The notes under the pieces were generated by a model. The model saw nothing but the letters and a program-made list of their open reading frames with translations, was not told the origin of the DNA and ran no database searches. From Desulfuromonadales bacterium (GTDB taxonomy: Bacteria; Desulfobacterota; Desulfuromonadia; Desulfuromonadales; Syntrophotaleaceae), in contig JASKKK010000006.1 in NCBI GenBank assembly GCA_030154185.1, forward strand, positions 5,056-69,055: a stretch of 64,000 bases of DNA, given 5' to 3'. This document shows, piece after piece, positions 4,423 through 41,568 of this stretch (position 1 is its first letter; each line of letters opens with the position of its first letter). The position numbers and the translations under genes were made by a program.

Positions 4423-4455
4423 TCATATCCTCAGGTTGTCGCCAGAGCCTCCGAG

Positions 4456-7779: not shown

Positions 7780-7921
7780 GCAGTAAAAATCCTTTTTTTG
7801 TCGATGCGGTAACCACTTAGACCGGTAAGCATAACACAGGACCCCCTCCGGAGGGAATAGTTCCCATCGTCGCTGAATTTTACCCTTTCCTCCGCAATCA
7901 TCCTTCGCTATGCTGGCGGCC

Positions 7922-10798: not shown

Positions 10799-11014
10799 AC
10801 GTACAGGTTTGACAGTCTTCGGACGTACCAAAGCTACGGACATACAGTAGCATAAAGGAACTTTCCCAAGACGACCTTGTTATTGTTAACTTGTGCTACA
10901 GGCGGGGAGGCCTCCTCCCCGCCTCCACAGTTTGACCGGCCCCTTCGGTGCCGGCCAGGCAACAACCCAAGGCAACCCCAAAACTCCGCACACCGAAACG
11001 GCAGGAGGATCATC

Positions 11015-12124: not shown

Positions 12125-12232
12125 ATTCGGGCAACATCTCCAACAAACAATTCTTGTTCAAGAAATGACGCACAGGGCATCCCGAGAACAGCACACTCAC
12201 CCTGTGGTTCACCCGAGACATGGAGGTGTCAC

Positions 12233-15508: not shown

Positions 15509-15614
15509 GCCATGGTGAAATCCCCCCATTTGGGGGATGGTTTTATATTCAGGTATCTGCTAGAAATAAGTCCAGGTAGCAGGAAATATAAAGAATCTGC
15601 TATTCACACAATTT

Positions 15615-15785
15615 GACAAGGGACGGGTGCTTAAGAAGCCTAACAGGGAAGACGGTGTAAATCCGTCGCGGTCCCGCCGCTGTAACCGGTGACGATGGCC
15701 ATATGATGCCACTTTTCGTACTCACGAAAGGGAAGGCGTGGCCGGCAGAATGACCCGGAAGCCAGAAGACCTGCCTGCCCCGCAT
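15615..15785 (+). promoter_or_regulatory. cobalamin riboswitch (leader of the cob operon)
   Basis: Conserved elements read directly: gggtgc..aacagggaagacggtgtaaatccgtcgcggtcccgccgctgtaacc..gccac..gggaaggc..B12 box agccagaagacctgcc. Confidence 0.85.
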
Positions 15786-15867
15786 ACGTGCTGTTGTGAC
15801 CTTCGAGGATTGAGGACCGACATTTCGTGCACGTGTGCAGATCGTTGGCTGGCGGATAAAAAACGGT

Positions 15868-20327: not shown

Positions 20328-22922
20328 ATGACCGAATCCGGCAACTGGCGTCACGGAGGCCATCTTCGACAACTGGCCATAACTGCCGGGCTGAACCCCG
20401 AGGCCTTGCTCGATTTTTCAGCCAACATCAACCCACTGGGTCCACCCGAATGGCTGCGTTCCCGCATCAGCGGCTCCATCAGCTCCCTGGTTCACTACCC
20501 TGATCCCGAAGGGCAGGCACTGATCGATGCCGCTTGCCGTCGTTACAGTGTAAATGCTGAGGAAGTCCTTATCGGCAACGGCTCCACCGAGTTGTTTTAC
20601 CTGCTGCCTCAGGCTCTCGAAGTTCGGCATGCCTTGATTCCCGTTCCGAGCTACGTCGATTATGCGACCGCGGCAGGCATCGCGGGGCTCACAATCCACA
20701 CCCTGCCACTTGCGGCCGGCAACGGATTCTGTCTCGATTTCGAAGCCCTCGAAACCGCCCTCAAGGAACTGAGGGACACCCCTGTCATGGTGCCTTTAGG
20801 CCAGCCCAACAATCCCACCGGTCGCAGCTTCGACGCCCGACGGTTGCGGCATCTGGCCCGCCGGTTCCCAAAAGCAACCTTTGTCGTCGACGAAGCCTTT
20901 GCCGATTTTGTTGAAAATTTCGACAGTCTCACCGTCAATCGTCCGGCCAATGTCGTGGTGATGCTGTCCCTGACCAAGATTTTCGCCATCCCCGGGCTGC
21001 GTCTCGGAGTGGCCGTCGCTGCGCCCTCCACCGTGCGGAAAGTCAAATCCCTGCAGCCCCCCTGGTCGGTCAACACCATTGCGCAGAGGGTTGGAGAAGC
21101 CGCCCTGCTCGATACCGCATACACACAGCAAACGCGAGCCGCCGTTTCAACCCTGCGGGAAGAGCTGCGATGTCACCTTGAGCAGGTTCCCTTCCTGACC
21201 GTTTTCCCGGGGGAAGCCAACTTCCTGCTGGTGCGTTGTGACCGCACCTCGCTGGACGCCCGCACTCTGGCCGGCCGTCTGCTCAAGCGCGGGCTTGCCA
21301 TCCGGGTCTGCGACAACTTCGACGGTCTGGACGAGCGGTTCTTCCGTGTCGCGGTACGCACCGAGCCGGAAAACCGTAAACTGGTGGAAGCTCTGAGCCA
21401 GGAACTTTTCATGGCGCCCCTGGTCAAAACCCGCCGCCACACTCCGGCCATCATGTTTCAGGGAACCAGCTCCAATGCCGGCAAAAGCGTCCTGGCAGCC
21501 GCTTTGTGCCGCATCATGCTGCAGGACGGCTACCGCGTGGCGCCTTTCAAAGCGCAGAACATGTCCCTCAACTCCTTCGTCACCCGCGACGGAGGCGAGA
21601 TGGGACGCGCCCAGGTCGTGCAGGCCCAGGCCGCACGCCTCGATCCGGACGTACGCATGAATCCCATCCTCCTCAAACCGAACAGCGACACGGGCAGCCA
21701 GGTGGTGCTGTGCGGCAAGCCGATCGGCAACATGAAGGTCATGGACTATTTTCGCTACAAGTCAGAAGCCTTCGAGCGGGTCAAGGAAAGTTACGACGAT
21801 TTGGCCGCCGACCATGACGCCATCGTACTGGAAGGCGCCGGCAGCCCTGCGGAGGTCAATCTCAAAGCGCACGATATCGTCAACATGAAAATGGCCCTTT
21901 TCGCTCAAGCACCTGTCCTGCTGGTCGGCGATATCGATCGCGGCGGCGTGTTCGCCTCCTTTGTCGGATCCATGGAAGTTCTGTCGGAACGCGAACGCGC
22001 ACAGATTGCGGGATTCGTCGTCAACCGCTTCCGCGGACAGCCCGACCTGCTCAAGGATGCCCTCGACTATACCCTGCAACACACCGGTCGGCCGATCCTC
22101 GGTGTGGTCCCCTATCTGAAGGATCTGGGATTGCCCGAAGAGGATTCCGTCGGGTTCAAGGAAGGACTGTTCGACGATGCGCGCCCGGCCGAAGATGCCG
22201 TCGATATCGCGGTCCTCGACTTGCCGCATATCTCCAATTTCACCGACCTCGAACCCCTGCGTCTCGAACCGGATGTTCGACTGCGCACGGTGCGCCGCAT
22301 CCAGGATCTCGGCCATCCGGATGCCGTCATCCTGCCGGGGAGCAAAAACGTCATCGGCGACCTTACCTTTTTGCGGGCCGTCGGCTTCGACCGCAGCCTG
22401 GAAAACCTGGCAGCCGAAAGCCGCTGCGAAATCATCGGTATCTGCGGCGGCTATCAGATCCTCGGACGTTCTATCAGCGACCCCCACGGCATCGAATCCC
22501 CGGGTACCGACCTGGTCGGCCTCGAACTGCTCCCGGTGGACACGGTGCTGGAGGAGGACAAGACCCTCATACGCACCGAGGCACGCCATCGGATTTCAGG
22601 CATAAAACTGCACGGCTACGAAATTCACCACGGCCAAAGCCGCGCCGATCAACTGCCGCCCGCCCTGATCGGAAGCGACGGCAACGGTCTGGGAGCCTGC
22701 CGCGGCGACGGTCTGGTGTGGGGCAGCTATCTTCACGGTCTGTTCGATGCCGACGCCTTCCGTCGCTGGTTTATCGACCGCCTGCGCCAGCGCAAAGGGC
22801 TCCGGCCCGTCGGCAAAGTTCAAACCCGTTACGACCTTGAGCCGGCCTTTGAACGCCTCGCCGACACCGTGCGGCAGAGTCTCGACATCCCTGCCATTTA
22901 CCGCCTCATGGGATTGCGATGA
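20328..22922 (+). CDS. cobQ: fusion: threonine-phosphate decarboxylase (CobD) + cobyric acid synthase (CobQ/CbiP)
   Basis: N-terminal half is aminotransferase class I/II-like ([12 protein letters not shown]). C-terminal half is CobQ ([13 protein letters not shown].., GATase domain ICGGYQILG) in one 864-aa ORF. Confidence 0.85.
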
Positions 22923-24511: not shown

Positions 24512-25897
24512 ATGAGTTGTCCGAGACTGGTCATAGCCGGCACCTCCAGCGGCGTCGGCAAAACCTCCCTGACCCTGGGACTTACGGCAGCGCTGTGTCG
24601 TCGGGGTCTGCAGGTCCAGACATTCAAGGTCGGTCCCGATTTTCTCGACCCCACCTGGCTGTCGTTGGCCAGCGGACGTCCCTGCATCAACCTCGATGGC
24701 TGGATGTGCGGCAAGACATATGTGCGGGAACGGTTTGCCAAAGCTACTGTCGATGCCGATATCGCCATCATCGAGGGTGTCATGGGATTGTTCGACGGTG
24801 CCGCTCCCTGCAACGCCGAGGGCAGCACCGCCGAAATCGCCCGCTGGCTCGACGCTCCGGTACTGCTGGTGGTCAACGCACACGGCATGGCCCGCAGTCT
24901 GGCAGCATTGGTAAAAGGTTATGCGGAATTCGATCCCGACCTGCATCTGGCCGGGGTTATCGCCAACCGTTGCGGCTCACCGCGCCACACCACATGGCTT
25001 TCCGATGCCCTCAACGCAGCCGGGATGCCACCACTGGCCGGTGCCGTTCGACGGGATTCCCTGCCGCCTTTGCCCAGCCGTCATCTCGGCCTGGTGACCG
25101 CCGACCGGCAGAATCTCTCCATATCGGCTCTGGCCGATATGGCCGATGCCATCGAACAACATCTCGATTTGACCCGCATTCTCGCCTTGGGTCAAAACAT
25201 AGCACCAAAGCACGTGGCTGCCCCCCCCGATGCCTTGCCGGTTGCCGAAAATCGAAAGGTCCGCATCGGTTTGGCTTACGATGAAGCCTTTCACTTCTAC
25301 TATCCGGACAACCTGCAGGCGCTGGAAGATGCCGGGGCGAGCCTGGTGCGTTTTTCTCCGTTGCATGACCGCTCTGTGCCCGCTGGCCTGGACGCCCTGA
25401 TTTTCGGCGGCGGCTATCCCGAGGAATACGCTCCGGACCTTGAAGCCAACAGCGACATGCGTCGCGCCGTTGCGGCTTTCGTATCTGCCGGTCATCCGGT
25501 TTACGCCGAATGCGGCGGACTCATGTATCTGTCCGAAGGCATCGAACTGCGCGATGGCTCCCGTCACGACATGGTCGGGGCCCTGCCCTTTGGCACCCGG
25601 ATGTTGGCAACACGCAAGCGCCTCGGCTACACCGAGGTCAGGCAGTTGGAAAAAGGCCCCTTCGGCGATGCCGGCACCTGTCTGCGCGGCCATGAATTCC
25701 ATTATTCCGAAATAGTCGACCAAACCTCCACCGGCACCTCGGATGCCGCCTGGCAGGTTCGTTACCGTCGTAGCTCGGATCCGGTTATGGAAGGTTATCG
25801 GCGCGGCAATGTGTTCGCCAGTTACGTCCACATCCATTTTGCCTGCCGCCCGGGCGCGGCCGAGGCTTTTGTCGATTTTTCCCGAGGAGACCGATGA
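24512..25897 (+). CDS. cbiA: cobyrinate a,c-diamide synthase
   Basis: VIAGTSSGVGKTS.., GPDFLDP, and a C-terminal GATase with ECGGLMYL. Confidence 0.85.
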   Translation: MSCPRLVIAGTSSGVGKTSLTLGLTAALCRRGLQVQTFKVGPDFLDPTWLSLASGRPCINLDGWMCGKTYVRERFAKATVDADIAIIEGVMGLFDGAAPCNAEGSTAEIARWLDAPVLLVVNAHGMARSLAALVKGYAEFDPDLHLAGVIANRCGSPRHTTWLSDALNAAGMPPLAGAVRRDSLPPLPSRHLGLVTADRQNLSISALADMADAIEQHLDLTRILALGQNIAPKHVAAPPDALPVAENRKVRIGLAYDEAFHFYYPDNLQALEDAGASLVRFSPLHDRSVPAGLDALIFGGGYPEEYAPDLEANSDMRRAVAAFVSAGHPVYAECGGLMYLSEGIELRDGSRHDMVGALPFGTRMLATRKRLGYTEVRQLEKGPFGDAGTCLRGHEFHYSEIVDQTSTGTSDAAWQVRYRRSSDPVMEGYRRGNVFASYVHIHFACRPGAAEAFVDFSRGDR

Positions 25898-26559
25898 AAC
25901 CGTTGATTCATGAATTACTGGCCGATCCTTTGAGTGGCGAACAGATCGAATGGCGCTCCATGGCCATTATCGACCGGGAAGCGCCGCCCCACAATTTCAC
26001 GCCAGAACAATGGCCGGTGGTAAGGCGCATGGTCCACACCACCGCCGATTTTTCACTGCTTGACCTGGTGCGCTTTTCGCCCGATGCCATCGATGCCGCC
26101 TGCCATGCACTAAAAGCCGGCGCGTCGATCTACGCCGATTCGAACATGATCCGCGCCGGACTCTCCAAGGCCCGCCTGCAGCGGGTCTGCCCGGACTACA
26201 AGGCGGAATCGATCCTTTGCCATGTGGCGGACACCGACGTCGCCGGCCAGGCGCGACAAAGCTCCCTGCCACGTTCCCTGTTCGCCGTGCGCAAAGCGGC
26301 GGCCAACCTGCAAGGCGGTATCGCGGTATTCGGCAACGCCCCCGTCGCCCTGCTGGAGCTCAACCGTCTGATTATGGAAACCGGCCTGCGCCCGGCCCTG
26401 ATCATCGGCATGCCGGTCGGTTTCGTTCACGTGGTGGAAAGCAAGCAGGAGCTGATGGACATGGGCGTGCCCTACATCACCATCGAGGGACGCCGCGGCG
26501 GCTCCCCGCTGGCGGTCAGTGTGGTGCATGCGCTGTGCGAGTTGGCGCTTCGGTCTTGA
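25894..26559 (+). CDS. cbiC: precorrin-8X / cobalt-precorrin-8 methylmutase
   Basis: VHTTADF and GNAPVAL blocks. Overlapping start/stop with cbiA. Confidence 0.85.
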   Translation: MKPLIHELLADPLSGEQIEWRSMAIIDREAPPHNFTPEQWPVVRRMVHTTADFSLLDLVRFSPDAIDAACHALKAGASIYADSNMIRAGLSKARLQRVCPDYKAESILCHVADTDVAGQARQSSLPRSLFAVRKAAANLQGGIAVFGNAPVALLELNRLIMETGLRPALIIGMPVGFVHVVESKQELMDMGVPYITIEGRRGGSPLAVSVVHALCELALRS

Positions 26560-26701
26560 AGTCCAAGGTCCAGGGAGATTGTGATTTTTGCCTTGCTTTG
26601 ACAGTCAAGTCCCCTGTGACGCAGCCCCGCGGTGTTGGTTGATTTCCAAATGATCCAATAAAACCGAGCACCACTCATCCAACACGAAAGGAGGTGATTG
26701 C

Positions 26702-26803
26702 ATGAAGCAGCAGCGCAAGGAAGTCATCGCCTACCGCAAATCCTGCGCGGCGAACGGTACCGGTCTTTCCCATTACATTCTGATGGACAAGAAGACCACC
26801 TAG
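26702..26803 (+). CDS. 33-aa peptide MKQQRKEVIAYRKSCAANGTGLSHYILMDKKTT, candidate radical-SAM-modified precursor
   Basis: Not in the ORF track (too short). Strong SD aaaggaggtga with 7-nt spacing to the ATG. Lies directly upstream of the SPASM radical SAM gene. A hairpin follows the stop. Confidence 0.45.
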   Translation: MKQQRKEVIAYRKSCAANGTGLSHYILMDKKTT

Positions 26804-26949
26804 TTTTCAGAGGGAAGATATCCGTTTCCCGGATGAAAACGTAAAACCGCGGGGCGCTTCCGGGCGCTCCGCACCTAAAACCGAACCCAGTTACATACCG
26901 CCGTTTTTGTGCGGAGCTGATAACCATATCGACCATTGGGAGAAACTCC

Positions 26950-28365
26950 ATGAATGAGACGAATGCTTTCGCCAACAAGGCCTCCTCGCGGGGCATCCAC
27001 TTCAACACCGGCAACGGTCCGAGCCTGCTGCCGGTCAACATCGACCATCCCGACTATATCGCCCTGCTCGATCCCGACGCGGCTTTCTGGTCCTTGATCC
27101 AGAAGGACAAACTGGGTGAGGCCCTGAGCAGCGAAAGTACTTTCATGCAGCAGTTTCTCAGCCGCCGGGACGAGTTCCTGACTGAGATCGACGCCCTGCG
27201 CTTCGGCCTGAAACCCTCGGCGGTCTACTTCAACCCCACCGACCGCTGCAACCTCAACTGTTCCTACTGCTACATCCCGGAAGAGATGCGCAGCGAAGGC
27301 AAGACCATGACTCCGGACGAGTTGATCAAATCCCTGGGCATCCTCAAGGAGTATTTCAAGACCACCGTGCCCGAGGGCCTCAAGCCGCAGATCATCTTCC
27401 ACGGCGCCGAACCGATGATGGCTCGCGAAGCCGTCTTCGCCGGCATCGATGCCTATCTGGACGATTTCCGGTTCGGCGTGCAGACCAACGGCACCCTGCT
27501 CGACGACGAAGCTATCGCCTTCCTCACCGAGCGCAATATCGGCATCGGCCTGTCCCTCGACAGCCACCTCGACGACATCTGTACCCGCACCCGCAAAACC
27601 TGGGACGGAGACAGCGTCTTCGGCCACGTCGTCAAGGCCATGAACAAGCTCAAAGACTACGCCAACTTCAATGTCATCTGCACCGTAACCCAGGAAAACA
27701 TGGACAAGCTGGTGGAGATGGTCGACTTCTTCCATGAGCAGGAAGTACCCATCTGCATGCTGAACCAGGTGCGCTGTACCCGCCAGGGCGCCCGAGATAT
27801 CAAACCCCTGGACCATGAAATGGCCGAGCATTACTTCAAAGCCCTCGACCGCACCTACGAACTGTATCAGAAAACCGGTCGCAAGCTGGTGGTGGCCAAC
27901 TTCGCCAATATCCTCGTCGGCGTCGTCGCACCTGCCGCCCGCCGACTGATGTGCGACATCTCTCCCTGCGGCGGCGGCCGCTGCTTCTTCGCTTTGTCCG
28001 CCTCCGGCGATCTGTTCCCCTGCAGCGAATTCGTCGGAGTCGAACGCTTCAAGGGCGGCAACCTGTTCACCGACGACATCGACGCCGTCCTGCAGACCGA
28101 ACCCTTCCGCGCCGTCACCGAACGCGTGGTGGAAAATATCGATCCCTGCAAACGCTGCGCGGTGCGCCACTTCTGCGGCTCGCCCTGCCCGGCGGAAGCC
28201 CATGAGATGAACGGCGGCCAGAACGTTCCCGGTGCCTTCTGCGAACTCTACGAAGAACAGGTACGTTACGCCCTGCGTCTCATCGCCGACGGCAAAGAAG
28301 AGGCCTATCTGTGGGACGAATGGGATGCGGATACCACCACCAGCATCGATCTGACGTCGTTGTAA
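26950..28365 (+). CDS. radical SAM / SPASM-domain peptide-modifying enzyme
   Basis: CNLNCSYCY (CX3CX2C). C-terminal Cys-rich SPASM region (CDISPCGGGRCFF..GDLFPCSEF..CKRCAVRHFCGSPCP). Confidence 0.85.
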   Translation: MNETNAFANKASSRGIHFNTGNGPSLLPVNIDHPDYIALLDPDAAFWSLIQKDKLGEALSSESTFMQQFLSRRDEFLTEIDALRFGLKPSAVYFNPTDRCNLNCSYCYIPEEMRSEGKTMTPDELIKSLGILKEYFKTTVPEGLKPQIIFHGAEPMMAREAVFAGIDAYLDDFRFGVQTNGTLLDDEAIAFLTERNIGIGLSLDSHLDDICTRTRKTWDGDSVFGHVVKAMNKLKDYANFNVICTVTQENMDKLVEMVDFFHEQEVPICMLNQVRCTRQGARDIKPLDHEMAEHYFKALDRTYELYQKTGRKLVVANFANILVGVVAPAARRLMCDISPCGGGRCFFALSASGDLFPCSEFVGVERFKGGNLFTDDIDAVLQTEPFRAVTERVVENIDPCKRCAVRHFCGSPCPAEAHEMNGGQNVPGAFCELYEEQVRYALRLIADGKEEAYLWDEWDADTTTSIDLTSL

Positions 28366-28370
28366 AGGTT

Positions 28371-28416
28371 CGGGGCCAAAGGCCCGAGGTTCGCGGGACA
28401 CGGGACGCGAAAACCC
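28371..28416. repeat. intergenic repeat, half copy (ggccaaaggcccgagg..ttcgcgggacacgggacgcgaaaaccc)
   Basis: Matches 33413-33459 and 30793-30830 by eye. Confidence 0.7.
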
Positions 28417-28710
28417 GTTAAGTGCACAAAACAAATCATCTTTGTTTTTAAGGTTTCTACTCAACAAAAACGCATGAGCCCGCAACGCAGGAGAGCAATA
28501 ATTTGCAGGTTGGCAATCAAATGTCAAAAGTGGGGGAGGTCCGAAGATACCACCTACGGCTCTTATCGGCATATCGGCGGCAACTTCCGCTCCCCCGCCG
28601 CGACAGCCATCCCGCCCCGAAGGGGAAGGTATTTTTTGCTTACCTTGGATATTTAGCCTGCATCGTTCATGGGGCTAGTCTCAACCTGAATATTGGGAGA
28701 AATGACCAAT

Positions 28711-29586
28711 ATGGCCCGTCTTTTTAAAGTCACTGTCTGGCTGTTTCCGGTATTGCTGGCCGGTTGCATAACCGGAACGCCCGAAATGACAGCCGAAAAG
28801 GATCCATCCATGTGCAACAAACCGCCCGCCATCGTACTGGTAGCCTTCGGCACCACCTCGGACAGAGGCCGGGAAGTCTTCGACGTCATCGAAGAAGCGG
28901 CACATAAACGCTACCCGGAGCACGATATCTTCCTGGCCTTTACCTCCCGGACGGTGGTCGACCGTCTGCGCCAGCGCGGGGTGATGGTGCATAACCTACC
29001 GGAAACCCTGGCCCGACTGCAGGCCGAAGGTTACACACAGGCCATCCTCCAATCGCTGATGATCGTTCCGGGGCAAAAAGACGCCGAGATCGCCCGGTTT
29101 TCGACCGGCACGTTGCAGGTTGCTTACGGCCAACCACTTATGGCCTGTGCCGACGATATCCGTGACACCGTCGAAGCCGTCCGCAGGGACATCGCCACCG
29201 GCCGGCCCACGGTTTTCGTAACCCATGGCAACAGCAAGTACCCGCAATACAACCGGGCGTTGCTCGCTTTTGCCTCCGCCGTCGAGAACCGCTTTGCTAC
29301 GGCTGTTACCTGCAGTGTGGAAGGCGAACCGGGCCTTGACAAACTCGGTCTTGCCCGGCAGTGGGCCGAGGAAGCGGGTGCCGTGCATTTCGTGCCGCTG
29401 ATGCTGGTGGCCGGCGATCATATCGAAAACGATGTCCTCGGCGACGAGTCCGACTCCTGGAAAAATCTCATCGGCGTCTCCACCGCCAGTTGCGCAACGC
29501 CTCTGGGCTACAATCCGGCCATACTCGAGATCTTCTTCCGGCACCTTGATGCGGCCAGGGCGGCTTTGCAGGCAACGGAAGGGTAA
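28711..29586 (+). CDS. cbiK: sirohydrochlorin cobaltochelatase CbiK, lipoprotein form (alternative cytoplasmic start at 28810)
   Basis: MARLFKVTVWLFPVLLAGC lipobox. CbiK core IVLVAFGTTS..HG..MLVAGDH. An internal ATG at 28810 with aaaagga 7 nt upstream would give MCNKPPAIVLVAFGT. Confidence 0.8.
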   Translation: MARLFKVTVWLFPVLLAGCITGTPEMTAEKDPSMCNKPPAIVLVAFGTTSDRGREVFDVIEEAAHKRYPEHDIFLAFTSRTVVDRLRQRGVMVHNLPETLARLQAEGYTQAILQSLMIVPGQKDAEIARFSTGTLQVAYGQPLMACADDIRDTVEAVRRDIATGRPTVFVTHGNSKYPQYNRALLAFASAVENRFATAVTCSVEGEPGLDKLGLARQWAEEAGAVHFVPLMLVAGDHIENDVLGDESDSWKNLIGVSTASCATPLGYNPAILEIFFRHLDAARAALQATEG

Positions 29587-29591
29587 AACGC

Positions 29592-30788
29592 ATGTACCGG
29601 TCTATTCTGCTTTTGTCCATACTCGCTTCTCTGGCCATGGGTTCGCTGATTCCGATGCACGCTCAGGCGGCGGACGCCTCCCAATCTGCCGCAGAGGTTT
29701 CCGCTTCACGAGCGGAAAAGGTTCAGGCCGAGGGAGAGCGCGGCCGCGCCCTGGAACGCGCCCACCGAGAGACAAAAGCGCGTCCCTCGCCCTACGCCTC
29801 CTGGAAGCGGAAACTTTCTTTCTGGCCCCGCAAAACCGTGTTGCTGGTGGAGCTGGCTCTCTTCATTACCGTCGGCATTCTCATCGGCCAGGTGCTTGAA
29901 GTTGCTGGGTGGATCGGTGTGCTTTCCGTGCTTGCCTGGCCCCTGATCCGCTTGGGGCGCCTGCCCCGTGCTGCAGCACCGGCTTTCATCATGGCCTTTC
30001 AGTCGGGAGCGGTGGCCAACAGCATGCTGGTTTCTTATCGGGACGAGGGAACGCTCAACAATCGACACCTGTACACCTCCGTACTGGTGGTGTCCTGCAT
30101 TTCCCTGTTTGCCCATCTGCCGACCTTTATCGTGCCGCTGGGCTTTGCCTTCGGCTGGGCGGCCACCGGTGCCCTGTTCGGCGTCCGGCTGGCCGCCATT
30201 GCGCTGGAAATCGTCCTGGTGCTGATGGTATCCAGCTGGCTCGGCAGGCGGTGGCGGGAAGACCGGAGCCTGTTTGACCAGCCCTTGCGATACCTGGGTG
30301 AGGATGGCCGCCACCCGGTCAGGATCCCGTTCTTCAGCGTCGATTTCTGGAGGCGGGTATGGAAACGTTCCCGCCGCACCATCCGCCGGCTGCTCTTGTA
30401 TGTGCTGCCGACATTCGTGGTCATGGCCCTGCTGGAGCAGTTCAAGGTTTTCCAAAGCCTGGCGGCCTGGTTGCCGGGTCTGTTCAAACCGGCCTTTCTG
30501 CCTAGCCAGGCGGTGGCCATTATTCCGGCTCAGGCGGTCAACATGTACAACGGCGCCATCGCCGCGGCCAACTTCGTCGACGCCGGCAGCCTGACCATCA
30601 AGCAAGCTGTCACCGTCATTCTGCTCGGTTCGGTCATCACCGCCCCGCTACGCACCCTGCGCCATGCACTGCCGACCTATCTGGCCACCCTCGGCGCGAG
30701 ACCCGGCGCGGTCATGGCGATAAGCGCCCAGGCGCTGCGGGTCACTTTTGTACTGCTCTGTACCTGGGTGATGGTGATGGTTTGGTAA
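29592..30788 (+). CDS. polytopic membrane protein with signal peptide; possibly nucleoside-recognition (FeoB gate-like) transporter domain
   Basis: Signal MYRSILLLSILASLAMGSLIPMHAQA, then a charged region, then about 8 hydrophobic helices. Family assignment is tentative. Confidence 0.55.
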   Translation: MYRSILLLSILASLAMGSLIPMHAQAADASQSAAEVSASRAEKVQAEGERGRALERAHRETKARPSPYASWKRKLSFWPRKTVLLVELALFITVGILIGQVLEVAGWIGVLSVLAWPLIRLGRLPRAAAPAFIMAFQSGAVANSMLVSYRDEGTLNNRHLYTSVLVVSCISLFAHLPTFIVPLGFAFGWAATGALFGVRLAAIALEIVLVLMVSSWLGRRWREDRSLFDQPLRYLGEDGRHPVRIPFFSVDFWRRVWKRSRRTIRRLLLYVLPTFVVMALLEQFKVFQSLAAWLPGLFKPAFLPSQAVAIIPAQAVNMYNGAIAAANFVDAGSLTIKQAVTVILLGSVITAPLRTLRHALPTYLATLGARPGAVMAISAQALRVTFVLLCTWVMVMVW

Positions 30789-30792
30789 CGAC

Positions 30793-30880
30793 AGGCCAAA
30801 GGCCCGAGGCCCGCAGGACGCGGAAACCTTGTCATCGTTTCGCCTTTCAGGATAGGGGCGATCCTTGTGATCGTCCTTCG
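30793..30880. repeat. intergenic repeat, full copy A
   Basis: 35-nt core ttcaggataggggcgatccttgtgatcgtccttcg (30846-30880) is 33/35 identical to 33476-33510. The upstream half is related to 28371-28416. Confidence 0.8.
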
Positions 30881-31723: not shown

Positions 31724-32776
31724 ATGGGCGGCCTGCATAATGGATTCACCACCGGTGCCTGTGCCGCAGCAGCGGCCAAAGCCGCCGCCGGACTGTTGGC
31801 CGGGTGGACGATGCACGAAGCGGTAACCATTCCCCTGCCGGACGGTACGCGGGAATCGCTGCCCCTGGCCTATGCCCGCACTTTGCCCGACGGAGCGGAA
31901 GCGGCCGTATGCAAACAGGCCGGCGATGATCCGGATGTCACCGACGGGGCCCTGGTCATCGCCCGTATCGCATGGAAGAAAAGCGACATCGCGTTTCATG
32001 CGGGCGAAGGGGTCGGCATCATCACCAAACCGGGGCTGGCCCTGCCCCCTGGGGAACCTGCCATCAACCCCGGGCCGCGACGCATGATCGAAGCGGCGGT
32101 GCGCGAAGTGACGGATCGCGGCCTGCATATTACCGTCGCCGTTCCCGCCGGAAAAGAACTGGCCGCCCGAACCTTCAATCCCCGCCTGGGAATCGAGGGC
32201 GGAATATCGGTCCTCGGCACCACCGGCAGAGTGCGGCCATTCAGCCTTGAAGCAGTCCGCAAAACCATGGAATGCGCCTACGACGTGGCCATGGCCGCAA
32301 ACATCCGGTATCCCGTCCTGGTGCCCGGGCATATCGGCGAACGGGCTGCACGCCGGCACTTTCGCTTGCAGGACGAGCAGGTGGTGGAGGCCGGCAACGA
32401 ATGGGGGTTCATGATCGACCTGACGGCACGCAAACCGCCTGCAGCCCTGCTGGTGCTGGGACATCCGGGCAAGCTCGCCAAACTTTCCCTGGGCCACTGG
32501 GATACCCATTCGCGTCGGTCCGCCAGTCCGGTCCCCTCCGTCAGGAAACTCGCCGCCCAGGTCCTTGACTTTCCGATTCCCGAAGCAACCACCGTGGAAG
32601 GCGTGTTTGCAGACCTGAATCCCGAACAGCAAAAAAGCCTCGGCGATGCACTGGCCAGAGCGGTTCAGATTGCCATCAGCCATCGCCTCAACTATCGGAT
32701 GCCGGTTTCAACCTTGCTCATCAACCTGGCCGGCGACCTCCTCGGTTCCTGCGGAGATTTGACACCATGGCAATAA
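31724..32776 (+). CDS. cbiD: cobalt-precorrin-5B (C1)-methyltransferase
   Basis: GFTTGACAAAAAKAA N-terminus and GGISVLGTTG. Confidence 0.9.
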   Translation: MGGLHNGFTTGACAAAAAKAAAGLLAGWTMHEAVTIPLPDGTRESLPLAYARTLPDGAEAAVCKQAGDDPDVTDGALVIARIAWKKSDIAFHAGEGVGIITKPGLALPPGEPAINPGPRRMIEAAVREVTDRGLHITVAVPAGKELAARTFNPRLGIEGGISVLGTTGRVRPFSLEAVRKTMECAYDVAMAANIRYPVLVPGHIGERAARRHFRLQDEQVVEAGNEWGFMIDLTARKPPAALLVLGHPGKLAKLSLGHWDTHSRRSASPVPSVRKLAAQVLDFPIPEATTVEGVFADLNPEQQKSLGDALARAVQIAISHRLNYRMPVSTLLINLAGDLLGSCGDLTPWQ

Positions 32777-33411
32777 CAGACAGACCCATCATCATCGTGG
32801 GATGCGGTCCCGGAAGCCCCGAATACCTGACGGATGCCGCCCGACATGCAGTAGAACATGCCGGACTGTTGATCGGTGCCGACCGCCTGCTGGATCTGTT
32901 TCCGGATGCGAAAGCCGAGAGAATTGCCGTTGGGGCGGATATCTCCGCCGTTCTGCATACTATGGAAATCCGCCTGGGAAAAACGCCCATGGTAGTGCTG
33001 GTCACCGGCGATCCCGGCATGCACAGCCTGGCCCGTCCGGTGCTGCGTCATTTCGGACGCGCCTTGTGCCGCATCATCCCTGGTGTCAGCTCGGTGCAGG
33101 CCGCCTTTGCCGCCGCCGGCGTCGACTGGATGAACGCCCGCATCCTCAGCGCCCACAAAACGGTACCGGACATCGATCCCCGGGAACTCGCACCGGTCGA
33201 CAAAATCGCCGTGCTGGCCGGCTCGCCGGCCGCCCTGCGCTGGATTGCCGAACTGGCGGAGCGCCTCGCGCCACGCTGGATTTTTGTCTGTGAAGAACTG
33301 ACCCTTCCCGGCGAAACCGTCACCAAGGTTAGCGCGGAAATGCTGGCGAGAATGGAAGCCAGCCCCAGAACCGTGGTGCTGTTGCTGCGCCCCGGCGTAT
33401 GGGATGTTTAG
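32767..33411 (+). CDS. cbiE: cobalt-precorrin-7 (C5)-methyltransferase
   Basis: IIIVGCGPGSPEYLT, GDPGMHS and IPGVSSVQ. No fused CbiT domain. Confidence 0.8.
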   Translation: MAITDRPIIIVGCGPGSPEYLTDAARHAVEHAGLLIGADRLLDLFPDAKAERIAVGADISAVLHTMEIRLGKTPMVVLVTGDPGMHSLARPVLRHFGRALCRIIPGVSSVQAAFAAAGVDWMNARILSAHKTVPDIDPRELAPVDKIAVLAGSPAALRWIAELAERLAPRWIFVCEELTLPGETVTKVSAEMLARMEASPRTVVLLLRPGVWDV

Positions 33412-33412
33412 G

Positions 33413-33510
33413 GGCGAGGACAAAGACCCGAGCTTCGCGGGACGCGGGACGCGAAACCCTTGTATCGCCTCACCCTTCAGGGTAGGGGCGATCCTTGTGA
33501 TCGCCCTTCG
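33413..33510. repeat. intergenic repeat, full copy B
   Basis: See 30793-30880. Core at 33476-33510. The gggacgcgggacgcgaaaccc part matches 28390-28416. Confidence 0.8.
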
Positions 33511-37119: not shown

Positions 37120-37893
37120 ATGAAGAAGTGGAGTGTTTTACTGGTCTCCGTCTTTCTGCTGGCCGCCGGCTTCGTCAGCTCGGCCCAGGCGAAGATCGAA
37201 GTCGAGGGCGATGTCTACGTCGGCCTCTGGGACAAGTACATCTGGCGCGGATTCGACCAGAGCGGCAGCAAGCCCACCATCCAGGGCGGCATCGATTTGA
37301 GCACCAACGGGTGGACCCTGAGCTACTGGGGCAACTGGCAGCTTAGCGAGGACAAGGAAGAAGGCTACGAATCGGGCGAAAGCAACGAAACCGATATCAT
37401 CCTGACCTACAGCCATGACGTCACCGACTGGCTGAACGTTACCGTTGGCGATATCTGGTACGCCATCGACTTCGGCACCAAGGACGGCCTCAACCGCGAC
37501 GGTTCGGTCGACACCAACGAGGTCTTCGGCATTTTCAGCTTCGACACCCTGCTCTCCCCCAGCGTCAAGATCGCATGGGACTGGGACAAAGCTGATGAAG
37601 ACGGCCTCTACTTTACCTTCGACATCGGCCACACCTTCGACCTGAGCCAGTGGGTACCCAAAACCGCTCTCAACCTGGGTGCCGAGCTTTCCTACAACCT
37701 GCACAGTGATTACCTGGTGGGCGACTATGCCGGTTTCCACGATTACGAACTTTATGTCAGCCTCGACTACGCTCTGACCGATCAGCTGACCCTGAGCCCG
37801 ACTTTCTGGTTCACCTCGCCGATCTGCAGCGCGGCCAAAGACACCATCGATACGGAAACCACCGGTGCCATCAACCTGACCTTCGCCTTTTAA
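37120..37893 (+). CDS. outer-membrane beta-barrel protein, TorF-like putative porin (module B)
   Basis: Mature part differs from 10025..10798 at only 4 residues by my count (I/L, H/N, D/G, A/G). The signal peptide is diverged. Confidence 0.7.
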   Translation: MKKWSVLLVSVFLLAAGFVSSAQAKIEVEGDVYVGLWDKYIWRGFDQSGSKPTIQGGIDLSTNGWTLSYWGNWQLSEDKEEGYESGESNETDIILTYSHDVTDWLNVTVGDIWYAIDFGTKDGLNRDGSVDTNEVFGIFSFDTLLSPSVKIAWDWDKADEDGLYFTFDIGHTFDLSQWVPKTALNLGAELSYNLHSDYLVGDYAGFHDYELYVSLDYALTDQLTLSPTFWFTSPICSAAKDTIDTETTGAINLTFAF

Positions 37894-37933
37894 TCGATAG
37901 GCAAGTTCAGGCCTGAGAAACACCAGAACTCTG

Positions 37934-37975
37934 ACGGGGCGAGAGGCTGTTCAAACACCCCTCGCCCCGTTTTCC
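37934..37975 (+). terminator. intrinsic terminator/attenuator after porin B
   Basis: acggggcgag..loop..ctcgccccgt followed by tttt. Confidence 0.6.
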
Positions 37976-38068
37976 GCGAAAAGCCGGATGGCCAGCGGAC
38001 AGGTTAACGAAAATCGCAAATCACTGTTCACCGCTTTCCTGAAACCGACACTTGTCAGGAGGAACGTC

Positions 38069-39187
38069 ATGAAAAAAACCTTGTGGGGAGCCGTTTCCGC
38101 CACTGCCGCGATTGTGGCTGCCGGCGCCCTGTTGCTAACCCCGGCCTGCAGCAAAAAAGCAGAGCTGCAAGAAGAAACCCTGCGCATCACCTGCTGGGGC
38201 GGCTATGCCAAACCCTACGTTGAGGACTTCCAGCAACTGGTCAAGGACAAGTACAACGTCGATGTGAACGTTGAGATATACAACCCCACAGACCAGGACG
38301 AGTTCTTCCAGGCAGTCAAGGAGAATACTGGGGATCTGATCTCTCCACCCATCGAACTGCCCAAGATTCCGCGGTTCTATTCCTATCAGGAAGGCAAAGA
38401 ATACCTGCAGCCGGTGGATGTCAACAACATCCCCAACCTGGCCAAAATGATGCCGGTATTCCGTAATGACCAGACGCCTTTCTACAACGGCGTTCGCTAC
38501 GGCGTGCCCTACAACTGCGGCCCCTACGGGCTGGCCTACAATCTTGACAAGGTCTCGACCGAACCCAACTCCTGGAACGTGCTGTGGTCCCCGATGTATG
38601 CCGGACAGTACACCATCAACAACAACTTCCCCAAGGTGAATGTCTGGATTTCCGCCCTGGCTCTGGGCTACGGCTACAAGGACATCTTCGACATCAACCG
38701 GCTCGATCGCGCCAAAGTTCAGGAAAAGCTCAACGTTCTGGCCAAAAACGCCAAGAGCCTCTGGGACGGCGCAGCTAATCCGGATGAATTCCCGGAACTG
38801 TCTCTGGCGACGACCTGGGGCTTCGCCGCCCAGGCTGCCAACCTTAAAGGCGGCAACTGGCGTCTGGCCACTCCCGCCGAAGGCGGTACGGCCTGGATCG
38901 ACTGCTGGTACCTCGGCGCAGGCGCCAAAGGCATGACCAAAACCCTGGCTGAAGAATGGATCAACTTCATGCTCGAACCCGAGCGCCAGGCCGACGTCGT
39001 GAAATCGCAAGGCGTATCCCCTGTCATGGCCGACACCGGCGACATCCTCAACGACGAGGAAAAAGCCATGTTCCACGTAGGCGACGAAGCCTACTTCAAA
39101 TCCGTTGCCCTGTGGCGGGTTCTCAGCGAAGAGACCGAACAGGCGTTCAACGAAATGTGGGAAACAGCAAAACAGCAGCGGAATTAA
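38069..39187 (+). CDS. PotD/PotF-like solute-binding lipoprotein, orphan (module B)
   Basis: SD aggagg at 38057. Signal ..LLLTPAC. Collinear paralogue of 11015..12124. Confidence 0.8.
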   Translation: MKKTLWGAVSATAAIVAAGALLLTPACSKKAELQEETLRITCWGGYAKPYVEDFQQLVKDKYNVDVNVEIYNPTDQDEFFQAVKENTGDLISPPIELPKIPRFYSYQEGKEYLQPVDVNNIPNLAKMMPVFRNDQTPFYNGVRYGVPYNCGPYGLAYNLDKVSTEPNSWNVLWSPMYAGQYTINNNFPKVNVWISALALGYGYKDIFDINRLDRAKVQEKLNVLAKNAKSLWDGAANPDEFPELSLATTWGFAAQAANLKGGNWRLATPAEGGTAWIDCWYLGAGAKGMTKTLAEEWINFMLEPERQADVVKSQGVSPVMADTGDILNDEEKAMFHVGDEAYFKSVALWRVLSEETEQAFNEMWETAKQQRN

Positions 39188-39300
39188 AACCTGCGGATGT
39201 CCCGTCATCGGGAGCATCCCGTATTTTTCACCCATGCTCCGCCTGCGGAGATAGCCGCAGAGCGGATGGCATCCCCATCTAACGAGACGGAGGTAAACGC

Positions 39301-41568
39301 ATGTTCAAAAAGGGGAAACTCGCAGCTGGCATTACCGGTGCTCTGGTAATGACCTTCCTGGCCAGTCTGGCCGGGGCCGTCACCATCGGGAGCGTCAAGC
39401 CCGGTGAAGACGTCATGCAGTATATCACGCGCACCAAGGGCAAATTCGACCAAACACTCTATCAGAAGGTCATCGGCGCCGCCAACGCTTACAAGGAAGG
39501 CGACGAAGGTCTCGGCGTGGCGGCAGACAACGAACTGTCCCGCGAAAACGCCCGCAAACTGCTGGCCAACACCAAAATCAAGGACATTAACAACAATCCG
39601 CTGTTTGTGGACGGACAGGAAAAACTGATCCGCCGCACCACGGACAAGGCCGCGTACAACAAGGTCAAGAACATGACCATGGGCCAGTTGAAAAACTTCC
39701 TGCTCACCCAGCCCGAGGCCGAAATCAAGGCCATCATGGGCGGTCTGCACAGCGATGTCATCGGCTCCGTGGTCAAACTGATGTCCAACGACGAACTGAT
39801 CCGCGTCGGCAGCAAGATCTTCAACACCCTGCCCGGATCCAACATCGGTGCCAAGGGCTACCTCAGCGCCCGTATTCAGCCCAACTCGCCCACCGACAAT
39901 CCGGAAGACATCCAGATGCAGGTACTGGACGGCTTCTCCTATGCCGTCGGCGACATCGTCATCGGTACCAATCCGGTCGACAGCCAGCTTGAAGCCACCC
40001 TGCGCGTTCAGAACGCCCTGAAGGAAATCGTGACCGCGTTTGAACTCGAAGATACGGTGCCCTGGTGCGTTCTGGCCCACATCGACGGTCAGGCCGCCGC
40101 TGAAAAAGAAGAGCCCGGCTCCACCGCCATCTGGTTCCAGAGCCTCGCCGGCACCGAAAGCGCCAACAAGACCTTCGACCTGACCATCCAGAAGATGATC
40201 GATTACGCCAAAATGCGTAAGGGTCCCTACGGCCTCTATTTCGAAACCGGTCAGGGCGCCGACTACACCAACGGTCACGGCCACGGTTTCGACATGGTCG
40301 TTCACGAATCCCGCAAATACGGTTTCGCCCGTGCTCTGAAACAGGAAATCGCCAAGACCAAGGGCGTTCCCGAAGACGAAGTCTGGCTGCACCTGAACGA
40401 CGTGGCCGGTTTCATCGGTCCCGAGGTATTCAAAACCCGCGAGCAGCTGGTACGCTGCTGCCTCGAAGACATCGTCATGGGTAAACTGCACGGCCTGGTG
40501 CTGGGCCTCGACATCTGCTCCACCCTGCACATGCCCGTCACCCTCGACGACCTCGCATGGTGCCAGGACCAGATCGCTCCGGCCAACCCGGCCTACCTGA
40601 TGGCCCTGCCCACCCGTAACGACCCGATGCTCAGCTACCTGACCACCGGTTTCCAGGACCATGTCCGCCTGCGTGAGAAGTTCGACTTCAAAGTCAACGA
40701 CGCCATGTGGGACTTCTTCAAGAAAATTGAAGTCATCGACGCCAACGGCCAACCGACCGAACATTTCGGCGACCCGGCATGGGTTTACTTCAAGTTCCGT
40801 CAGGCCAAAGGCGACACCCGCTCCTTCGACGTTATCTATGCCGAAGGCAAAAAAGCCATCAAGAACGTTCAGAACCGTGGTGTCGATATCGCTGTCGGCT
40901 ACGGCGAGAACATCTGGGATCTGGAACCGGTCACCAACAAGCGCATCCACGATCTGTACGACGATGCCAAAATCAGCCTGTGGGCCGAATTCACCCCGGA
41001 ATTCATCAACTCCATCCCCAACGCCGTAAGCATCAAGAGCCAGGCCCACGATCGTGAAAACTACATCTCGGCTCCGGCCACCGGTGAAAAGCTGTCCGCT
41101 TCCGCCGTGGCCACTCTGGACAAACTGGCCGCCTCCTGGGGCAATAAAGTCCCCGATGTGCAGATTGTGATCTCCGACGGCCTGAATGCCAAGGCGATCA
41201 TGGACGACGGTCACCTGATGCCTTACCTGAACGAACTGAAAAAACAGTGCAAAAAAGCAGGCCTGACCCTGTCCGACAAGAACATCGTCGTGACCGGCGG
41301 CCGCGTTCGCGCCGGCTACAATGCAGGGGAAGTACTGTACGGCAAAGCCGGCAGCGCTCCCAAAGCCGTGGTTCACATCATCGGCGAACGCCCGGGCAGC
41401 GGCCATCATGCCTTCTCTGCCTACCTGGTTAAAGTCAAGCCGAGCACCTGGGCCAAAGCCGGCTCGGTCGACCATGACCAGTCCAAGGTTCTGTCCGGCA
41501 TTTCCGACACTGGCCTGGTTCCCGCCGAAGCGGCCCGCCAGACGGTTAAGCTGCTGATGGAAATGTAA
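39301..41568 (+). CDS. fused EutB-EutC ammonia-lyase-like enzyme with N-terminal signal peptide/anchor (module B)
   Basis: SD ggaggt. MFKKGKLAAGITGALVMTFLASLAGAVTI. Same EutB and EutC blocks as the module A copy. Confidence 0.85.
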   Translation: MFKKGKLAAGITGALVMTFLASLAGAVTIGSVKPGEDVMQYITRTKGKFDQTLYQKVIGAANAYKEGDEGLGVAADNELSRENARKLLANTKIKDINNNPLFVDGQEKLIRRTTDKAAYNKVKNMTMGQLKNFLLTQPEAEIKAIMGGLHSDVIGSVVKLMSNDELIRVGSKIFNTLPGSNIGAKGYLSARIQPNSPTDNPEDIQMQVLDGFSYAVGDIVIGTNPVDSQLEATLRVQNALKEIVTAFELEDTVPWCVLAHIDGQAAAEKEEPGSTAIWFQSLAGTESANKTFDLTIQKMIDYAKMRKGPYGLYFETGQGADYTNGHGHGFDMVVHESRKYGFARALKQEIAKTKGVPEDEVWLHLNDVAGFIGPEVFKTREQLVRCCLEDIVMGKLHGLVLGLDICSTLHMPVTLDDLAWCQDQIAPANPAYLMALPTRNDPMLSYLTTGFQDHVRLREKFDFKVNDAMWDFFKKIEVIDANGQPTEHFGDPAWVYFKFRQAKGDTRSFDVIYAEGKKAIKNVQNRGVDIAVGYGENIWDLEPVTNKRIHDLYDDAKISLWAEFTPEFINSIPNAVSIKSQAHDRENYISAPATGEKLSASAVATLDKLAASWGNKVPDVQIVISDGLNAKAIMDDGHLMPYLNELKKQCKKAGLTLSDKNIVVTGGRVRAGYNAGEVLYGKAGSAPKAVVHIIGERPGSGHHAFSAYLVKVKPSTWAKAGSVDHDQSKVLSGISDTGLVPAEAARQTVKLLMEM

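Follow-up and report, generated by a model that had tools for sequence, protein, structure and literature searches.

CbpA and CbpB, a short conserved peptide and a predicted radical SAM maturase, and their ties to cobamide metabolism through gene neighbourhoods and cobalamin riboswitches

The system considered here belongs to a pair of protein families that NCBIfam already defines, TIGR04164 (cobo_pep) for a short peptide, CbpA, and TIGR04163 (rSAM_cobopep), titled 'peptide-modifying radical SAM enzyme CbpB', for an enzyme of the radical S-adenosylmethionine (SAM) superfamily. We analyzed one such pair, cbpA and cbpB, in a 64,000-nucleotide stretch of DNA from a Desulfuromonadales bacterium (GenBank assembly GCA_030154185.1, contig JASKKK010000006.1, positions 5,056 to 69,055 of the forward strand), referred to below as the window, where the two genes lie within a string of cobalamin biosynthesis genes. 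Both products are full members of their families, with the gene order and cob context that the family names imply. The 33-residue CbpA scores 65.1 bits (E 2.8e-18, all 25 profile positions covered) against TIGR04164, for which the curated equivalog cut-off is 35 bits, and the 471-residue CbpB scores 778.5 bits (profile positions 2-428 of 428) against TIGR04163, for which it is 375 bits; an initial annotation of the window, which had named such a pair of families, was therefore correct on this point. It had also called the small open reading frame (ORF) unannotated, which does not hold. Proteins identical to these two can be found in public databases as MDK2847090.1 (CbpA) and MDK2847091.1 (CbpB), from a Desulfuromonadales metagenome-assembled genome (MAG), and they share 90% clusters with proteins of Syntrophotalea (Pelobacter) carbinolica, WP_011340163.1, equivalent to Pcar_0479 (CbpB), and WP_081424992.1/Pcar_3203 (CbpA), while NCBI and JGI label cluster members 'modified peptide precursor CbpA'. 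With exact proteins and family models both public, the family and even this gene pair are already catalogued, and CbpA/CbpB is a known family, defined bioinformatically. That no product or function had been established, as was further stated, agrees with a literature search in which no functional study, product, chemistry or phenotype of CbpA/CbpB was found in the searchable full text, outside which most subscription papers lie; the sole mention found was in the 2012 genome annotation of Pelobacter carbinolicus. Overall, the comparative data probably favor a role of cbpAB in corrinoid supply.

Beyond its own family, CbpB is related to several groups of peptide- or protein-modifying enzymes, from which all 25 of its best NCBIfam neighbors are drawn. 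The scores next after TIGR04163 belong to PapB (NF047865, 132.5 bits, cut-off 340), DynA (129 bits), anSME (TIGR03942, 119.8 bits, cut-off 349.45) and the SCIFF maturase (TIGR03974, 104.4 bits, cut-off 425), all far below cut-off, with QhpD, the quinohaemoprotein amine dehydrogenase maturase, at 96.6 bits (cut-off 453); a match to a characterized non-peptide family was also looked for, and CbpB reaches none of their cut-offs. Among entries of the PDB the best relatives, by sequence and Foldseek, are CteB and then anSME, ChlB, TigE and SuiB. CteB, of the SCIFF system (CteA/CteB, ScfA/ScfB), is matched at 117 bits and with a Foldseek E of 5.6e-18 over approximately 465 columns that include the N-terminal domain. 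Both enzymes have three domains, a recognition element (RRE) for peptides made by the ribosome and modified post-translationally (RiPPs), a radical SAM domain and a SPASM domain, the first of these being putative in CbpB, and in both cases the cassette is essentially one of two genes, housekeeping-like in character, whose short peptide is highly conserved and has no assigned physiological role. Nevertheless, CbpB falls far short of the SCIFF maturase cut-off, the SCIFF peptide has six Cys residues and CbpA one, and SCIFF is clostridial and has no link to B12.

The second-best match in both fold and sequence, anSME, acts on sulfatase proteins. It resembles CbpB in its two SPASM clusters and in the four Cys residues preceding a CX2CX5CX3C block, and the C-x-[A/P/T]-x-G context of the single invariant Cys in each CbpA recalls the sulfatase motif C/S-x-P/A-x-R. 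It differs not only in score, but also in that CbpA has an invariant Gly where the sulfatase motif has Arg, and in that the alignment starts at approximately residue 92 of CbpB, corresponding to residue 6 of anSME, so that the N-terminal domain has no counterpart. PapB (a ranthipeptide enzyme), the best non-self NCBIfam hit, and QhpD both form Cys-to-side-chain thioethers, PapB within CX3D/E motifs; the invariant C-x3-G spacing in CbpA is a point of likeness, whereas no Asp or Glu that could serve as acceptor is conserved beyond the Cys of CbpA. Finally, the pairs PqqA/PqqE and MftA/MftC, which belong to the pyrroloquinoline quinone (PQQ) and mycofactocin systems, also couple a tiny, strongly conserved peptide to a SPASM radical SAM enzyme, with a distribution and conservation resembling primary metabolism rather than natural-product pathways. 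These systems, however, require PqqB/C/D/F or MftB/D/E/F, none of which is found beside cbpAB, and PqqE and MftC are absent from the top NCBIfam hits of CbpB. Newly reported here for the CbpA/CbpB family are the strict pairing of the two genes, stand-alone riboswitch cassettes, a frequent hairpin in the spacer between the genes, and an enzyme architecture like that of CteB and anSME. No prior description of the stand-alone riboswitch arrangement, the inter-cistronic hairpin or variants with tandem peptide units was found in the searchable literature.

Two ties to cobamide metabolism

Relatives of CbpB are present in at least 589 species-level genomes, and our locus analysis covers the best 80 of them, which have a full-length identity of 58-92% and represent more than 10 phyla. 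By record title, the taxa include Desulfuromonadales, Desulfomonilales, Syntrophales, Acidobacteriota, Verrucomicrobiota and Planctomycetota, as well as Chloroflexota/Dehalococcoidia, Elusimicrobia, Omnitrophota, Nitrospirae, Lentisphaerae and one Bacillota MAG. Neighboring genes were found by clustering all ORFs across the 80 loci, with flanks of up to 6 kb. About 40 of these loci place the pair among cob, cbi, cobalt-transport (cbiMNQO), cbiX or btu (btuFCD) genes, typically in the arrangement cbiA-cbiC-cbpA-cbpB-cbiX-cbiMNQO-cbiD and otherwise beside cobU/cobT/cobS/cobC or beside btuFCD-like genes. The pair also heads operons of the cobT-cobS-cobC-cobU or btuFCD type, and it is found in operons that hold nucleotide-loop, salvage or transport genes only.

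A further 39 of the 80 loci have no detectable cob gene in their flanks, and in 36 of these a same-strand cobalamin riboswitch is predicted directly 5' of cbpA. Four further, cob-adjacent loci share this feature, and the total with a cobalamin riboswitch directly before cbpA comes to 41, including that of the cultured Desulfomonile tiedjei, for which a complete genome is available. There the riboswitch (9538-9742), cbpA (9826-9915) and cbpB (10001-11416) form a cassette flanked by opposite-strand genes. The median distance from the end of the aptamer to the core codons of cbpA is 180 nt (40 of the 41 loci, D. tiedjei left out), which leaves no room for another gene between them. Some cassettes consist strictly of two genes, bounded by a tRNA, a thiamine pyrophosphate riboswitch or opposite-strand genes, and in one Candidatus Solibacter MAG (L005) a riboswitch precedes cbpA (5236-5428) and a second one follows cbpB (7592-7784), ahead of cobU-cbiA. 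On the evidence of comparative genomics, cbpAB has two independent ties to cobamide metabolism, namely residence in cob, cobalt-transport or btu operons, or a cobalamin riboswitch of its own. Since the riboswitch stands upstream with or without a cob context, cbpAB has the appearance of a self-contained module placed under B12 repression.

These arrangements also bear on the step that the pair might serve. Because it occurs in operons with nucleotide-loop, salvage or transport genes only, and in stand-alone form, cobalt insertion or ring synthesis is unlikely to be its sole role, as judged from the loci compared. A pure cobalt-insertion chaperone was down-weighted on the same grounds, namely the presence of cbpAB in cobT-cobS-cobC-cobU and btuFCD-type operons and in stand-alone units. 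Across the 80 loci the ORF clustering recovered no leader protease, dedicated exporter or immunity gene conserved beside the pair, and no tailoring gene cluster of the PQQ or mycofactocin type was present in 81 loci; the neighboring clusters comprised cob, cbi, btu and cobalt-transport genes only, plus an asparagine (Asn)-synthase-like gene in 5 loci.

The Asn-synthase-like gene encodes a protein of approximately 316 residues, with a synthetase domain only and a C-terminal zinc ribbon, and adjoins cbpAB in Planctomycetia, Elusimicrobia, Omnitrophota and Nitrospirae MAGs (L026, 2277-3272; L034, 2055-2978; L049, 3977-4927; L050, 4951-5877; L051, 324-1274), lying directly 3' of cbpB in L049 and directly 5' of cbpA in the other four. 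Lasso cyclases belong to the same superfamily, and the protein could be an accessory peptide-modifying enzyme or an amidating enzyme of the cob pathway. In the Bacillota MAG (L039), the gene 5' of cbpAB (2723-4960, forward strand) encodes an AcsV/RamA-like corrinoid reductive activase with 2Fe-2S ferredoxin and CBS domains. In three loci (L008, 2920-2964; L052, 5136-5181; L068, 8616-8661 and 10309-10354), the strand opposite to cbpAB carries nearby matches to the small RNA Acido-Lenti-1, and a group II intron domain lies directly 3' of cbpB in a Chthoniobacteraceae genome (L014, 7430-7535).

The peptide, the enzyme and the spacer between their genes

In the window, cbpA occupies a 390-nt gap between annotated genes (Table 1). 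The initial annotation had proposed this 33-codon ORF as a gene, and it is indeed a real one by its TIGR04164 score, by its conservation and by its codon entropies; the GGAGG Shine-Dalgarno sequence and its 7-nt spacing were also read correctly. Conservation of the small ORF upstream of orthologous enzyme genes was complete, a cbpA ORF being found 5' of cbpB, on the same strand, in 75 of the 75 loci with sufficient upstream DNA. Among 74 unique CbpA sequences, the consensus core [VI][IV][AS]xR[KR]xCxxxGxGL[SA]H[YF][IV][LM] is near-invariant, with no variation at all at R, C, G(+4), G(+6), L and H, and yet the conserved residues use all synonymous codons. Summed codon-position entropies of 11.9, 7.2 and 29.6 bits at the first, second and third positions, respectively, are those of a gene under strong purifying selection at the codon/translation level, as read from the alignment. 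The initial annotation had called for a check of conservation at the Cys and in the region with the residues GTG and SHY. Conservation holds for the Cys, both Gly residues and the His, but not for the Thr at position +5, which may be T, A, V or I, nor for the Ser, which is replaced by Ala in 3 sequences; Thr20 and Ser23 are accordingly unlikely as essential sites. Tyr11 was rejected as a modification site, its position being occupied by Y, F, I, T, H, R, Q, C, L, S or V.

CbpA is short, lysine-rich and basic, with a computed pI of 9.9. Within its conserved unit, we propose that VIAxRK forms a recognition strand, to be followed by a CxxxGxGLSHY core. When 1.84 billion representative proteins were scanned exhaustively with HMMER, the CbpA motif turned up exclusively at the C-terminus of proteins of 29-134 residues, and the same scan, used as a Rosetta-stone search, returned no case of the motif fused to a larger domain. 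In three sequences (L035, P0121 and P0122) the complete unit of approximately 23 residues, VIAxRK included, is present twice per ORF. Since the whole unit is duplicated, it would be autonomous and need no long leader. The repeat in these tandem variants reads VIAxRKxCxxxGxGLSHYILxxK, and the L035 copy lies at approximately 5780-6000.

The description of CbpB as a 471-residue radical SAM protein with a CX3CX2C motif and a Cys-rich SPASM region is borne out by its motifs and by its Pfam domains, PF04055 (Radical_SAM) and PF13186 (SPASM). Mean identity across a 38-sequence alignment of CbpB is 72%. Of the nine C-terminal Cys residues, seven of which make up the complete SPASM signature C345-x7-G-x4-C358, C400-x2-C403-x5-C409-x3-C413 and C431 (C335 and C340 precede it), eight are invariant in that alignment, C345 being the consensus residue but falling outside both the invariant and the >=90% lists; C276, in the barrel, is likewise invariant. 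Nine such residues could suffice for two fully ligated auxiliary [4Fe-4S] clusters. An AlphaFold2 (AF2) model of CbpB, with a predicted local distance difference test (pLDDT) score of 77.7 and a predicted template modeling (pTM) score of 0.82, comprises a beta-beta-beta-alpha-alpha unit (residues 27-85), the radical SAM barrel and the SPASM region. The N-terminal region aligns solely with the RRE-bearing enzymes CteB, TigE and SuiB, giving 456-496 columns as opposed to 381-397 for anSME, and the phmmer alignment of CbpB with CteB begins at residue 53. From the model and these fold alignments, we infer that the N-terminal domain is an RRE-like peptide-binding domain.

The two genes are separated in the window by 146 nt, a spacer that, folded as a 153-nt segment, is more stable than its shuffled counterparts (z = -2.35). 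Its first stem-loop is followed by a hairpin with a 10-bp GC stem, at the place where a GC hairpin had been noticed beforehand. As an intrinsic terminator this hairpin was rejected, having no U-tail and not being called by terminator prediction, and a second copy of its sequence was not found within the window. A spacer of at least 60 nt is present in 47 of 76 loci; z is below -2 in 39 of these 47 long spacers, with a median of -3.3 and a median uninterrupted stem of 11 bp. The hairpins of other phyla have unrelated sequences and also lack a U-tail. Because structure is kept without conservation of sequence, a function for the hairpin is suggested, and differential stability or partial termination, yielding more peptide mRNA than enzyme mRNA, would be consistent with its position.

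The cob operon and further features of the window

The cobalamin riboswitch aptamer of the window stands at the head of a same-strand string of cob genes, approximately 11 kb 5' of cbpA. From 5' to 3' the string runs through cysG-like, cobC, cobU, cobT, cobS, a cobD-cobQ fusion, cbiB, cobA, cbiA and cbiC, then cbpA, cbpB, cbiK, a gene for a Gate-domain membrane protein, and cbiL, D, E, F, G, H and J; presumably the whole of it, cbpAB included, is a single transcript. The placement of the pair between cbiC and cbiK, and of a B12 riboswitch at the operon head, had been recognized in the initial annotation and stands. The same order, cbiA, cbiC, the hypothetical gene Pcar_3203, the radical SAM gene Pcar_0479 and cbiK, is recorded in the 2012 genome paper on P. 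carbinolicus (PMC3543383 supplement).

Several other features of this region were observed. The cobD-cobQ fusion is one ORF of 864 codons, with CobD (threonine-phosphate decarboxylase) at residues 9-356 of the product and CobQ (cobyric acid synthase) at residues 374-861. The operon contains cbiE and no cbiT; P. carbinolicus has, at another place in its genome, an annotated cbiET fusion, Pcar_2739 (PMC3543383). Directly 3' of cbiK, a membrane protein of 398 residues gives a weak match to the Pfam Gate (nucleoside recognition) domain and no match in an NCBIfam search. It could be a cobalt or corrinoid transporter, and it is a candidate because P. carbinolicus lacks cbiMNQO, its route of cobalt uptake being unclear according to its genome paper (PMC3543383). 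An intergenic repeat of approximately 55-105 nt, with 60-83% identity, occupies three gaps in the operon, 3' of cbpB, 3' of the Gate-domain gene and 3' of cbiE, and could be a repetitive extragenic palindromic (REP)-like or processing element.

The operon is in turn flanked by two copies of a block of approximately 4.4 kb (72-94% identity), each ending in a fused EutB-EutC ethanolamine ammonia-lyase gene with a solute-binding protein gene 5' of it. The B12 operon is thus bracketed by two paralogs of an adenosylcobalamin (AdoCbl)-dependent enzyme, and the same bracketing by ethanolamine ammonia-lyase paralogs has been described for P. carbinolicus (PMC3543383). Farther downstream, a molybdenum cofactor (Moco) riboswitch precedes a gene for aldehyde:ferredoxin oxidoreductase, and a second cobalamin riboswitch precedes a gene for a TonB-dependent receptor.

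Table 1. Coordinates of the cbpAB locus and of other features in the window
Feature	Positions	Strand	Basis or remark
Cobalamin riboswitch aptamer	15608-15792	+	Rfam RF00174, 115.9 bits, E 2.3e-28
cbiC	25894-26559	+	5' flank of the pair
Shine-Dalgarno sequence GGAGG	26690-26694	+	read from sequence; 7 nt to the cbpA ATG
cbpA, 33-aa precursor peptide MKQQRKEVIAYRKSCAANGTGLSHYILMDKKTT	26702-26803	+	ATG at 26702, stop 26801-26803; TIGR04164
Conserved CbpA unit, residues 8-27, VIAYRKSCAANGTGLSHYIL	26723-26782	+	conservation in 74 unique sequences
First spacer stem-loop	26803-26840	+	in minimum free energy (MFE) and centroid folds
Second spacer hairpin, 10-bp GC stem, GCGGGGCGCTTCCGGGCGCTCCGC	26849-26872	+	RNA folding; without U-tail
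cbpB, 471-aa radical SAM/SPASM peptide maturase (predicted)	26950-28365	+	TIGR04163; Pfam Radical_SAM and SPASM
Putative N-terminal RRE-like domain, ~residues 24-88	27019-27213	+	AF2 model and fold alignment
CX3CX2C, C100/C104/C107, predicted to bind the SAM-cleaving [4Fe-4S] cluster	27247-27270	+	invariant in 38 homologs
SPASM region, Cys 335, 340, 345, 358, 400, 403, 409, 413, 431	27952-28242	+	motif reading and alignment
cbiK	28693-29586	+	3' flank of the pair
cobD-cobQ fusion	20328-22922	+	one 864-aa ORF
Gate-domain membrane protein, 398 aa	29592-30788	+	weak Pfam Gate match
cbiE	32767-33411	+	
Intergenic repeat, 3' of cbpB	28361-28415		
Intergenic repeat, 3' of Gate-domain gene	30774-30880		
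Intergenic repeat, 3' of cbiE	33405-33510		
~4.4-kb block, first copy	10088-14494		
~4.4-kb block, second copy	37183-41568		
Fused EutB-EutC gene, first block	12233-14494		
Fused EutB-EutC gene, second block	39301-41568		
Moco riboswitch	52474-52594		5' of aldehyde:ferredoxin oxidoreductase gene
Aldehyde:ferredoxin oxidoreductase gene	52519-54360		ORF as listed; true start probably later
Second cobalamin riboswitch	54760-54933		5' of TonB-dependent receptor gene
TonB-dependent receptor gene	54892-57015		

Proposed role, alternatives and significance

On balance, we lean towards viewing CbpA/CbpB as a self-contained, B12-repressed module of peptide and maturase that serves corrinoid supply. When AdoCbl is scarce, the riboswitch would permit transcription or translation, and the hairpin 3' of cbpA would leave the peptide message in excess over that of cbpB, so that CbpA would behave as a stoichiometric substrate or product and not as a catalyst. 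The RRE-like domain of CbpB may then bind CbpA through VIAxRK, this segment joining the domain as an extra beta-strand, and the SAM cluster would give rise to a 5'-deoxyadenosyl radical able to abstract a hydrogen atom in the CxxxGxGLSHY core, with assistance from the two SPASM clusters and with the modification centered on the invariant Cys15. By analogy with its relatives, CbpB would modify CbpA, probably at this Cys. The most likely product would be an intramolecular thioether ring, like those that CteB, PapB and QhpD introduce; our second choice, because of the C-x-[A/P/T]-x-G context of the Cys, is that it becomes formylglycine, as with anSME. The modified, basic peptide would stay in the cytoplasm, and its action there is suggested because no exporter or protease travels with cbpAB; it would act at a step common to the de novo synthesis and the salvage of corrinoids. 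As a guess, we favor a peptide that carries or chaperones cobalt or incomplete corrinoids, its invariant His perhaps serving as an axial ligand to the corrinoid or binding the metal. The roles of chaperone, carrier or metallophore put forward in the initial annotation are likewise speculative. We advance more tentatively, as a possibility deserving serious attention, the broader proposition that modified CbpA is a widely conserved new component of cobamide metabolism, either a ribosomally made corrinoid/cobalt carrier or a peptide-derived cofactor, which de novo producers and salvagers of cobamides alike would require when B12 is limiting.

Several observations weigh against this account of the pair. 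With regard to the enzyme, residues 1-23 of CbpB are modeled at low confidence by AF2, and the N-terminal 90 residues alone gave no match in a scan with Pfam/RRE hidden Markov models (HMMs); because the isolated domain has no Pfam hit, its RRE assignment is putative. The nine-Cys arrangement could represent the pattern of anSME and SuiB, not the open Aux I site of CteB, so that a CteB-like open site is neither implied nor excluded by the Cys count. Moreover, the scores of PapB, DynA and anSME do not separate from one another, and both the chemistry and the modification of CbpA as such are argued from distant relatives. With regard to the locus, 29 of 76 loci have a short spacer that lacks the hairpin, and the cbpA-cbpB spacer of P. 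carbinolicus contains an annotated multicopy element, Pcar_R2002 (PMC3543383). The riboswitch, too, is absent from two loci with intact upstream DNA (L039 and L075), the second of which also has no detectable B12 gene nearby; a third locus without riboswitch (L053) is on a contig that ends approximately 330 nt 5' of cbpB.

The alternative that best withstands the evidence, although we judge it unlikely, is that a small cofactor is made out of CbpA, much as PQQ and mycofactocin are made from their peptide precursors. CbpB would cross-link or oxidize the GLSHY region, and housekeeping peptidases would release a redox-active or metal-binding molecule, used for example in the reduction of Co(II) to Co(I) before adenosylation. 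Such a pathway would accommodate the pairing of a SPASM radical SAM enzyme with a tiny peptide, the conservation of both across phyla to a cofactor-like degree, the high demand for substrate that the hairpin 3' of cbpA implies, and the corrinoid reductive activase that adjoins the pair in L039. It is harder to reconcile with a pair accompanied by no protease and by no gene like PqqB/C/D or MftB/D/E/F, many cassettes being of two genes only, or with a stretch of approximately 20 contiguous conserved residues, more than the two that would react. The piece that has been duplicated in tandem variants, moreover, is the whole 23-residue unit and not a short core.

SPASM radical SAM enzymes that modify tetrapyrroles do exist, AhbD, AhbC and NirJ acting on sirohaem-derived tetrapyrroles, and the position of the pair, which in many cob operons has cbiC on one side and cbiK/cbiX on the other, would suit an enzyme that acts in a comparable manner on a tetrapyrrole or corrinoid intermediate, with CbpA as its scaffold, activator or covalent carrier. 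The uniformly peptide- or protein-modifying character of the 25 best NCBIfam neighbors (25/25), the RRE-like N-terminal domain and the strict pairing with a peptide all argue otherwise, as does the presence of the pair in operons limited to the nucleotide loop or salvage and in stand-alone cassettes; we consider this explanation quite improbable.

Two further explanations seem to us more doubtful again. An exported product, whether a scavenger of cobalt or corrinoids (a 'cobaltophore' or 'corrinophore') or an antimicrobial or signaling RiPP made under B12 starvation, would fit B12-repressed expression, as expected of a scavenger, and the proximity of transporter genes, cbiMNQO or btuF/btuC/btuD-like, to the pair in some loci; RiPPs that bind metals are known, methanobactin among them. 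However, no conserved signal peptide, leader protease, exporter or immunity gene was found beside the pair, near-invariance over more than 10 phyla is unlike that of antimicrobial or signaling RiPPs, and CbpA is a short, lysine-rich and basic peptide. Of equally slight probability is a function outside B12 supply, in which cbpAB would be a regulator or a B12-sparing device comparable to riboswitch-controlled metE or nrd. A stand-alone gene behind its own riboswitch is the arrangement typical of B12-independent isozymes, and many cassettes are indeed alone behind a riboswitch, far from cob genes. Yet about half of the loci, the window included, are inside cob, cbi or btu operons, which is unusual for isozymes, and there is no known B12-dependent reaction that a peptide maturase would plausibly replace. 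Finally, that the small ORF arose by chance, or is a regulatory upstream ORF whose peptide sequence is irrelevant, might be entertained for 33 codons in a 390-nt intergenic gap, but has a negligible probability given a score 30 bits over the HMM cut-off, an invariant core written in all synonymous codons, its presence at 75 of 75 loci and a strong Shine-Dalgarno sequence.

From the perspective of cobamide metabolism, the module favored here, a B12-repressed peptide and maturase serving corrinoid supply, is an orphan system, and the comparative evidence that it plays a part in that metabolism is unusually strong. Although the anaerobic route to B12 and the salvage of corrinoids tend to be regarded as fully catalogued, cbpAB occurs in at least 589 species-level genomes from more than 10 phyla, with a CbpA core about as conserved as a cofactor precursor. 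Because the system is small, a peptide of 33 residues and one enzyme, and because hosts such as Syntrophotalea carbinolica and Desulfomonile tiedjei are cultured, its role is directly testable. If modified CbpA does prove to be a carrier or a peptide-derived cofactor, it would count as a further component of B12 biosynthesis and salvage, one so far missing from the anaerobic pathway. It would also represent a new, housekeeping physiological role for radical SAM-modified peptides, and could be relevant where anaerobes are engineered to produce B12.

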